The translations under genes and the position numbers were made by a program. Of a stretch of 64,000 nt of DNA, positions 39,071-39,214 are shown piece by piece. The stretch comes from a virus: the UHGV virus genome UHGV-0272730; one strand, written 5' to 3'. Below the pieces are notes generated by a model. That model ran no database searches. It was given only the letters and a program-made list of their open reading frames with translations, and had not been told where the DNA came from. The stretch's first letter is position 1. Each line of letters opens with the position of its first letter.

Positions 39071-39214
39071 AATTATCTTTGTAGATAAGCTACCCAGACT
39101 TGCTTAAGGTCTGTAGCGATGTGCCTTTTTGGGTTTAAATCTAGAATTTACCCTTTCACCCTTTGTGGTCGCATACTCACAGGTAAGCTTAATAACTTAT
39201 CTACAAAGATAATT
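39071..39214. repeat. perfect 19 bp inverted repeat pair flanking about 106 nt
   Basis: AATTATCTTTGTAGATAAG (39071-39089) and its exact reverse complement (39196-39214). Confidence 0.75.

Follow-up and report, generated by a model that had tools for sequence, protein, structure and literature searches.

The inverted repeat in the tRNA array

The window analyzed here is a 64,000-nucleotide stretch of the virus genome UHGV-0272730, which belongs to the genus Felixounavirus (99-100% identity by BLAST to Felix O1 and to many E. coli and Salmonella phages). Its minus strand carries 26 tRNA genes (34402-40187), and within this array lies a perfect inverted repeat of 19 nt. One arm, AATTATCTTTGTAGATAAG, spans 39071-39089, the other, its exact reverse complement, spans 39196-39214, and 106 nt separate them. 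We are nearly certain that the arms pair into a terminal helix of 24 bp (P1) that closes a conserved structured noncoding RNA (ncRNA), a discrete unit of about 145 nt here termed the long-stem RNA. Its parts, listed from the 5' end toward the adjacent tRNA, are as follows.

39067-39215, minus strand: whole long-stem RNA ('IR RNA'), about 145-149 nt, between Y-RNA module 4 (described below) and tRNA-Lys(UUU); defined by covariance model, minimum free energy (MFE) and orthologues
39191-39214, minus strand: P1 5' arm, AAUUAUCUUUGUAGAUAAGUUAUU, whose outer 19 nt are the repeat
39184-39188, minus strand: segment J1/2, GCUUA, proposed pseudoknot partner of the P4 loop
39156-39186, minus strand: P2, a variable hairpin with a loop motif, GAGUAUGCG, common to types A and C (MFE folds and sequence comparison)
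39131-39153, minus strand: P3, a hairpin around the conserved AUUCUAGAUU with the palindrome UCUAGA; 80.9% paired, with weaker support
39095-39113, minus strand: P4 hairpin, CAGAC-CUUAAGCAA-GUCUG, loop at 39100-39108; its 3' strand enters the P1 3' arm with 0 nt between
39071-39094, minus strand: P1 3' arm, GGUAGCUUAUCUACAAAGAUAAUU, then UAAU, then tRNA-Lys
38991-39066, minus strand: tRNA-Lys(UUU), immediately 3' of the long-stem RNA; the same adjacency occurs in the relatives L047, L048, L049, L055 and L057

The repeat lengthens to 22 nt at 95% identity, and its arms give 24 contiguous base pairs on the minus-strand RNA once G·U pairs are allowed. The original prediction, made from the letters of this DNA and a list of its open reading frames (ORFs), had called it the longest perfect inverted repeat in the window, and a scan of the 64 kb for close-range inverted repeats of 16 nt or more (exact seed of 12, arms separated by no more than 400 nt) agrees: it gave only two, of which this one is the longer. 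Allowing up to three mismatches, the arm pattern has a chance expectation of 0.09, and two matches were seen in 0 of 100 shuffles; the minus-strand fold has an MFE of -48.3 kcal/mol (z = -5.6 against dinucleotide shuffles). A covariance model of the orthologues places its match at exactly 39067-39215, scoring 159.6 bits on the minus strand and 41 bits on the plus strand.

The position beside tRNA-Lys(UUU), which lies 4 nt from the repeat, and the emptiness of the enclosed segment were also described correctly. ARAGORN and Rfam find no tRNA or tRNA pseudogene inside 39071-39214, which has neither a T loop nor a D loop, and the ORFs overlapping the long-stem RNA are short and unconserved. Because these annotated ORFs lie on either strand, the length of the RNA varies among phages (146, 147 or 149 nt within type A) and the substitutions follow the helices, the RNA does not look protein-coding. 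In Bas63 (L011, 1145-1297 and 1309-1419) two coding sequences annotated as 'hypothetical protein', bas63_0137 and bas63_0138, run on the opposite strand over module 4 and the long-stem RNA; these and similar coding sequences in many Felixounavirus records are likely annotation artefacts. An intrinsic terminator was rejected as well, there being no such site on the minus strand at 39067-39215, where an A+U-rich stem is followed by UAAU and the tRNA.

Conservation and covariation of the long-stem RNA

We compared members of Felixounavirus, Mooglevirus and Suspvirus, a Yersinia phage and four metagenomic relatives, with identity of the neighboring protein ranging down to 53%. In each of them an RNA of 145-170 nt occupies the slot after the last Y-RNA-like module (or a tRNA), and this RNA ends 0-4 nt upstream of tRNA-Lys(UUU). 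These RNAs fall into seven sequence types, with interiors that are about 50-60% alike or unalignable and an architecture that is constant.

Type A: the window, Felix O1, Bas63, EC6 and others (196 records)
Type B: some Felixounaviruses, Mooglevirus and Suspvirus
Type C: L047 (neighboring protein 64% identical)
Type D: L048 (neighboring protein 56% identical)
Type E: Yersinia phage P778 (neighboring protein 54% identical)
Types F and G: L055 and L057 (neighboring protein 53-54% identical)

The covariance model (R1) barely detects type D (20 bits, E = 0.07) and does not detect types E-G, for which position, fold and the P4 hairpin served to identify the orthologues. P1 comprises 22-25 bp in all seven types with at most one or two irregularities. 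In 13 sequences from types A to C, pairing holds in 98.4% of the cells of its 24 pairs, and eight pairs have changed on both sides, a covariation reached by 0 of 500 shuffles; when the register is slid, pairing falls to 30-45% (45% for a slide of one column). In L048, L049, L055 and L057 the arms differ in sequence and yet form a closing stem of 23-25 bp (in type D, 24 bp in three segments), with P4 abutting. The suggestion of a long-stem structured RNA, one of three made in the original prediction, is thus strongly supported.

The pairing is kept at the level of RNA, and on one strand. Of 304 P1 cells, 299 pair on the minus-strand RNA (99%, 43 of them as G·U) and 258 on the opposite strand (85%), because many of the P1 substitutions turn A-U into G·U. 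On this comparative evidence, the long-stem RNA is read in the tRNA direction, from the minus strand. The same substitutions weigh against an element acting as DNA, whether a miniature inverted-repeat mobile element (MITE), another mobile insertion, or a palindromic site for protein binding, recombination or a homing endonuclease. Perfect terminal inverted repeats would suit such an element, as would the HNH homing endonuclease genes dispersed through such tRNA arrays and a cassette-like exchange within Felixounavirus, where type A interiors alternate with type B interiors like those of Mooglevirus and Suspvirus (window 39095-39190 compared with L007, L008, L009 and L014) between flanks that are about 95-97% identical. 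Against it, the long-stem RNA is present once per genome (199 places in 196 records) and occupies a fixed slot, with no empty site in relatives and no target-site duplication or direct repeat in its flanks; the rest of the window has no further copy, and 5,426 complete E. coli genomes have none. We therefore reject the mobile element that had been put forward (neither multiple copies, nor presence/absence variation, nor a target-site duplication was found) and regard any DNA-level explanation as very improbable. Universal presence without copies elsewhere had been named beforehand as a sign of a mere conserved spacer; as to presence this holds in the relatives compared, but the spacer reading fails, the unit being a discrete folded RNA.

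Inside P1, which closes a multi-branch core, P4 is kept in all seven types. It is a stem of 5-6 bp with a 9-nt loop, 100% paired in the 13 sequences and with two compensatory pairs; across types its stems read CAGAC, CAGACC, CAAACC, CAGUC, CUGUUC, AAAGUC and AGAGAC. Being contiguous with the 3' strand of P1, it could stack on that helix. Its loop follows CYUWAGCAA in types A-E (as CUUAAGCAA, CUUUAGCAA or CCUUAGCAA) and reads CCUAUGCAA in type F and CUUGCACAA in type G. In types A-E this loop is complementary to a stretch of 5-7 nt just after the P1 5' strand: types A, C and D have UAAGC:GCUUA, and types B and E have UUAGC:GCUAA. Of 43 sequences, 41 carry a complement of at least 4 nt at J1/2 (5-6 nt in 38, and 4 nt in three EC6-like sequences), and because the two sites switch together, the comparison indicates that loop and junction form a pseudoknot in types A-E. 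The three outer pairs of P2 compete with this pseudoknot. An alternative lower helix under P4, CUAC/GUAG, was discarded, being broken in type C (ACAG), which instead extends P1 through a compensatory change from A-U to G-C.

In P3 the palindrome UCUAGA of types A and B (window 39139-39144) is replaced in type C by ACUAGU within a 10-nt palindrome, AUACUAGUAU (L047, about 6341-6350). Given that this symmetric change preserves self-complementarity, the palindrome could be a site of loop-loop dimerization.

The conserved interior also bears on a second suggestion of the original prediction, a recognition or processing site. In its purest form this would make P1 a duplex stalk of about two turns, cut by host RNase III to split the precursor, with an interior devoid of function. 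The minimal substrate of E. coli RNase III is about the size of P1, a duplex of at least about 20 bp; across the types P1 measures 22-25 bp, its pairing in the window is perfect, and it sits at the junction of module 4 with tRNA-Lys, a place that requires some cut. It resembles the stalks of rRNA operons and the sites of T7 and lambda, in which a helix of about two turns flanks a functional RNA in a polycistronic precursor. However, the roughly 100 nt enclosed here form a small, conserved, pseudoknotted fold, and a stalk has no need of the selection seen on P4, its loop and the pseudoknot. Several types moreover interrupt the P1 duplex with a mismatch, a bulge or a 2x2 internal loop, irregularities that vary between lineages, so that a perfect duplex is not the conserved feature. 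Putative cleavage by RNase III is compatible with the Y-RNA-like role proposed below and does not compete with it; as a complete account, the stalk seems to us distinctly unlikely. Some role as a recognition or processing site is still conceivable, since the helix is of RNase III size, but it would leave the conserved interior unexplained.

A Ro60-like protein and Y-RNA-like modules upstream of the long-stem RNA

Further upstream on the same strand lie a gene for a protein with the fold of Ro60, promoters, and four modules that resemble Y RNAs:

40353-41768, minus strand: 471-amino-acid DUF2828/DUF7788 protein with a Ro60 fold (Pfam, AlphaFold and PDB fold matches); orthologue of Bas63 gp130 (bas63_0130)
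40214-40334, minus strand: two sigma-70-like promoters ahead of tRNA-Pro, where the tRNA/ncRNA transcript presumably begins
39944-40020, minus strand: module 1, GAC-AGA-AGACCAA-UUACAGCAA ... UUGGUCU-G-GUC, between tRNA-Glu and tRNA-Met
39789-39854, minus strand: module 2, UUGC-AGA-AGACCG-UAUUCAGCAA ... CGGUCU-G-GCAA, between tRNA-Met and tRNA-Asn
39357-39438, minus strand: module 3, GAGC-AGA-AGACCAA-AUACAGCAA ... UUGGUCU-G-GCUC (sequence and comparison)
39213-39349, minus strand: module 4, YrlA-like, with closing stem UUAC-AGA-AGACCGUU / AACGGUCU-G-GUAA and motif UACAGCAA (sequence, compensatory changes and RNAalifold)

An AlphaFold model of the 471-amino-acid protein, built from 31 homologues, has a predicted local distance difference test score (pLDDT) of 88.6 and a predicted template modeling score (pTM) of 0.87. 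Its 13 best PDB fold matches are all Ro60/TROVE structures (E = 1e-7 to 3e-5, template modeling score up to 0.65), from Xenopus, human, Deinococcus (Rsr) and the Thermus phage phiLo. A sequence-only search of PDB with the protein gave no match; Ro60 emerged from the fold comparison alone. The protein is 34% identical to a mycobacteriophage 'Ro-like RNA binding protein', and its DUF2828 family has more than 2,250 matches and 710 phage records. The same structural similarity to Ro60 has been reported for Bas63 gp130, which in a genome-wide knockout study counters the Ppl defense, and Y RNAs were guessed, but not located, among the 'tRNA genes' downstream of gp130 (PMC11482910).

The nonamer CAGAAGACC occurs exactly four times on the minus strand of the window, each time followed after 60-125 nt by GGUCUGG, and all four modules so delimited lie in the tRNA region downstream of the DUF2828 gene. 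Each consists of a variable lower helix (GAC/GUC, UUGC/GCAA, GAGC/GCUC or UUAC/GUAA), an AGA/G internal loop and an upper helix, AGACC(N)/(N)GGUCU, with covarying variable inner pairs; the motif U(N)ACAGCAA (UACAGCAA) follows the stem, and then a variable insert. We considered the CAGAAGACC...UACAGCAA repeats as promoters and rejected them: the -10 regions are poor, and the 5' and 3' flanks covary as helices. A generic scan for any 6-bp stem with A[CUA]AGCAA is not specific (22 matches against a shuffle mean of 14), so that the case for the modules rests on comparative data. Modules of this kind flank DUF2828 genes in phages with a protein only 29-40% identical: the metagenomic phages L042 and L043, Mycobacterium phage Lolly9 (three modules, one matching the Rfam YrlA model at 37.7 bits, below the gathering score of 69), Listeria phage List-36 (three modules, with an RtcB ligase gene nearby) and Campylobacter phage CP81 (two modules).

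Module 4 contains what the original prediction had taken for a tRNA remnant. The tRNA-like sequence is real, with a canonical T arm, GAAGG-UUCGAUU-CCUUC (39275-39291), but its parts stand in the order V hairpin, T arm, acceptor-like hairpin (39258-39273) and D arm (GGUG-UAAUGGUAG-CACU, 39239-39255). Such a circularly permuted tRNA layout defines the YrlA Y RNAs (PMC4201824). The acceptor-like hairpin changes in a compensatory manner from CUCGGC-AGAU-GUCGAG to CACGU-UACG-GCGUG in Mooglevirus, and RNAalifold recovers the helices from six orthologues, including mycobacteriophage YrlA, with 29 pairs of which 16 are compensatory. No match to the Rfam YrlA model was obtained despite this V-T-AS-D layout. 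Because of the permuted layout and the compensatory changes, we read module 4, on comparative grounds, not as a remnant but as a YrlA-like Y RNA whose tRNA-like domain mimics a tRNA.

Several observations concern the modules in other phages. In L047 (6135-6275) module 4 is wholly missing and module 3 runs directly to the long-stem RNA; the tRNA-mimicking Y RNA is therefore dispensable in at least one lineage, which retains the long-stem RNA. In List-36 (L053, 1619-1885 and 4810-5455) the modules lie upstream of the DUF2828 gene and the RtcB 'tRNA splicing ligase' 1.3 kb downstream of it, an arrangement that echoes the bacterial rsr-yrlBA-rtcBA operon. The two modules of CP81 (L052, 1865-2015) overlap the annotated ORF140, which is probably not a gene. 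Just downstream of DUF2828 in the relatives with a 53-56% identical protein are odd tRNA-like genes, in which there is a large insert or the anticodon loop is abnormal (L048, 5607-5710; L049, about 7010-7140; L055, 6107-6181; L057, 6098-6168), which ARAGORN either does not call or calls 'tRNA-???'.

A possible Y-RNA-like role for the long-stem RNA

Five small RNAs follow the Ro60-fold gene, first the four Y-RNA-like modules and last the long-stem RNA, and this neighborhood of tRNAs and modules makes it probable that the long-stem RNA is another RNA partner of the protein and not a mobile element. Our preferred reading is that it is a discrete conserved RNA made together with the tRNAs and works with the Ro60-like protein as a Y-RNA-like partner or scaffold; we give this whole package a probability of roughly 0.6, with the Ro60 partnership itself at about even odds. 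The RNA would be transcribed from the minus strand within a polycistronic tRNA/ncRNA precursor; neither a promoter nor a terminator was found on that strand between the tRNA-Pro promoters and the long-stem RNA, nor a promoter of its own. A cut by RNase P at +1 of tRNA-Lys would free the 3' side with a tail of 0-4 nt, an endonuclease (RNase E or RNase III) would free the 5' side from module 4, and the long P1 would shield both ends against exonucleases. The freed RNA would then serve the Ro60-like protein (gp130 in Bas63) as an additional Y-like RNA, in which P4 (an AGAC/GUCU helix with AGCAA) may be a minimal version of the protein-recognition element of the modules, and P2 and P3 would form a variable 'effector' side.

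One mark of a Y RNA is close linkage to a Ro60 orthologue on the same strand, within 4 kb in Chen et al. 2014 (PMC4201824). The 5' end of the long-stem RNA (39215) lies 1.14 kb downstream of the stop of the Ro60-fold gene at 40353-41768, on the same strand and with sibling small RNAs, as in the loci of S. Typhimurium YrlA/YrlB (RF02553), mycobacteriophage YrlA and phiLo Yrl1/Yrl2. As in Y RNAs, its 5' and 3' ends pair, in the form of the long P1 stem, to close a large multi-branch loop; as in phiLo Yrl1/2, a short conserved motif sits in a hairpin; and its neighbor, module 4, has the full YrlA layout. The Y-like RNAs of phiLo have a 5'-3' stem flanking a large bulge, with motif-bearing hairpins (PMC12135203), and Ro60 loci commonly encode several unlike Y RNAs (PMC4201824), both of which fit the proposed role.

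Other features set the long-stem RNA apart from known Y RNAs. Its stem of 22-25 bp is almost perfect and not bulged, and it has no tRNA-like domain. The canonical Ro60-binding motifs, GGUCCGA of vertebrates, GNCGAAN0-1G of YrlA and CGAA of phiLo Yrl, are absent, and the nearest likeness to the modules is AGAC/GUCU with AGCAA in P4, whose loop covaries with J1/2; the lineage motif UACAGCAA is thus cut down to AGCAA and apparently paired in the pseudoknot. The candidate partner belongs to the DUF2828 branch and not to Pfam TROVE, and its binding is putative. Membership in YrlA (RF02553) was rejected, as there is no covariance-model match and there are no T or D arms. An Rfam search of the tRNA array and of 39050-39450, with thresholds relaxed to E <= 10, returned tRNAs and chance matches but no Y_RNA, YrlA, ribozyme or riboswitch. 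Outside the Ro60 systems, the tRNA cluster of phage T4 offers a comparison, by description only: species 1/RNA C and species 2/RNA D are structured RNAs of about 120-140 nt released from the same precursor as the tRNAs. T4 is not known to carry a Ro60-like gene beside RNA C and RNA D.

A number of points weigh against a partnership with Ro60. The function is read from neighborhood and architecture, and the long-stem RNA has no Rfam match to Y_RNA or YrlA even at the relaxed threshold. The full UACAGCAA motif is missing, so that only AGCAA is held in common with the modules; it stands in a hairpin loop that is apparently engaged in the pseudoknot and not free for a protein, and the P4 stems do not covary with the stems of the modules. 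In types F and G the loops have diverged and lack a complement at J1/2, their complements lying elsewhere. At DUF2828 loci beyond the Felix O1-like group no counterpart of the long-stem RNA was found, in contrast to the simple modules, which occur widely. The neighbor that the long-stem RNA keeps most constantly, finally, is tRNA-Lys(UUU) and not the Ro60-like gene.

This last point suggests a different reading, in which the long-stem RNA is an autonomous structured RNA coupled to tRNA-Lys(UUU), either as a 5' leader that controls RNase P processing or the yield of tRNA-Lys, or as a decoy or protector against host nucleases that attack this tRNA. Anticodon nucleases of the PrrC type target tRNA-Lys(UUU). 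The RNA keeps its place 0-4 nt upstream of the tRNA in all seven types though its other neighbors change (module 4 is lost in L047, and in L048, L049, L055 and L057 a tRNA-Ala is inserted upstream and different tRNAs follow), and a second long-stem RNA with a similar 3' end, AAAGAUUUAAU, lies likewise directly 5' of tRNA-Leu(UAG). The P4 loop begins with CUU and ends with AA, like the anticodon loop of tRNA-Lys, CUUUUAA; but it has 9 nt and is apparently paired in the pseudoknot, and the P4 stems do not track the anticodon stems of tRNA-Lys, for which reason we rejected P4 as a mimic of the anticodon arm. The adjacency itself may be mere conserved synteny in a compact array. We hold this tRNA-coupled alternative to be unlikely, though less so than the RNase III stalk.

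Should the long-stem RNA indeed partner the Ro60-like protein, the two would form a defined, genetically tractable RNA-protein pair for studying the role of Ro60 and Y RNAs during infection; should it be independent of Ro60, it would represent a new conserved RNA fold and family tied to a phage tRNA-Lys. Y RNAs beside phage Ro60 homologues are already known in mycobacteriophages, CcrColossus, Bacillus phage G and phiLo. We found no literature that describes the ACAGCAA signature or places Y RNAs in phages like Felix O1 (the 22-phage list of Chen et al. 2014 being outside this comparison), and in literature on Felixounavirus RNA-seq and ncRNA we found no transcript data for this region. The Y RNAs that were only guessed in PMC11482910 are now placed to the nucleotide, behind the gene that counters Ppl.

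More speculatively, we can imagine a new family of pseudoknotted phage RNAs, tied to tRNA-Lys(UUU) and with a sister before tRNA-Leu(UAG), that together with the widespread 'stem + ACAGCAA' Y RNAs arms DUF2828 Ro60-like proteins as a counter-defense machine, guarding or repairing the phage tRNA pool or blocking a defense such as Ppl. We offer this tentatively, as an idea that may well prove wrong; if true, Felix O1 and Bas63 would provide a tractable phage model for Ro60/Y RNA biology.

Other structured RNAs in the array

Phages of the Felix O1 type are classic typing and therapy phages whose tRNA region has been annotated merely as tRNAs and short 'hypothetical proteins'; it encodes at least five conserved structured RNAs besides the tRNAs, namely the four Y-RNA-like modules and the long-stem RNA. 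The second conserved long-stem RNA, directly 5' of tRNA-Leu(UAG), lies at 37738-37827 (minus strand) and also in L047 (7907-7994) and L036 (7285-7363). Its arms of 26 nt are 85% complementary and enclose 38 nt, with compensatory changes in two relatives and a conserved interior, AUUGUUGCU; its 5' end may alternatively form an AGACC/GGUCU hairpin.

A third long hairpin (38610-38714, minus strand; arms of 27 nt, 81% complementary) lies between tRNA-Ile and tRNA-Arg(UCU) and is directly preceded by a strong promoter-like sequence, TTGACA-17-TATAGT, at 38743-38715. On the 5' side of module 3, at 39440-39495 (minus strand), are two nearly invariant hairpins, GAGGGCU...AGCCCCUC and CUUAAAGGG...CCUUUAAAG, the second with a compensatory change from G-C to A-U in relatives. 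Repeats similar to these hairpins, AAAGGGTA/TACCCTTT, recur at 38398-38461 and around the promoter at 40306-40342.

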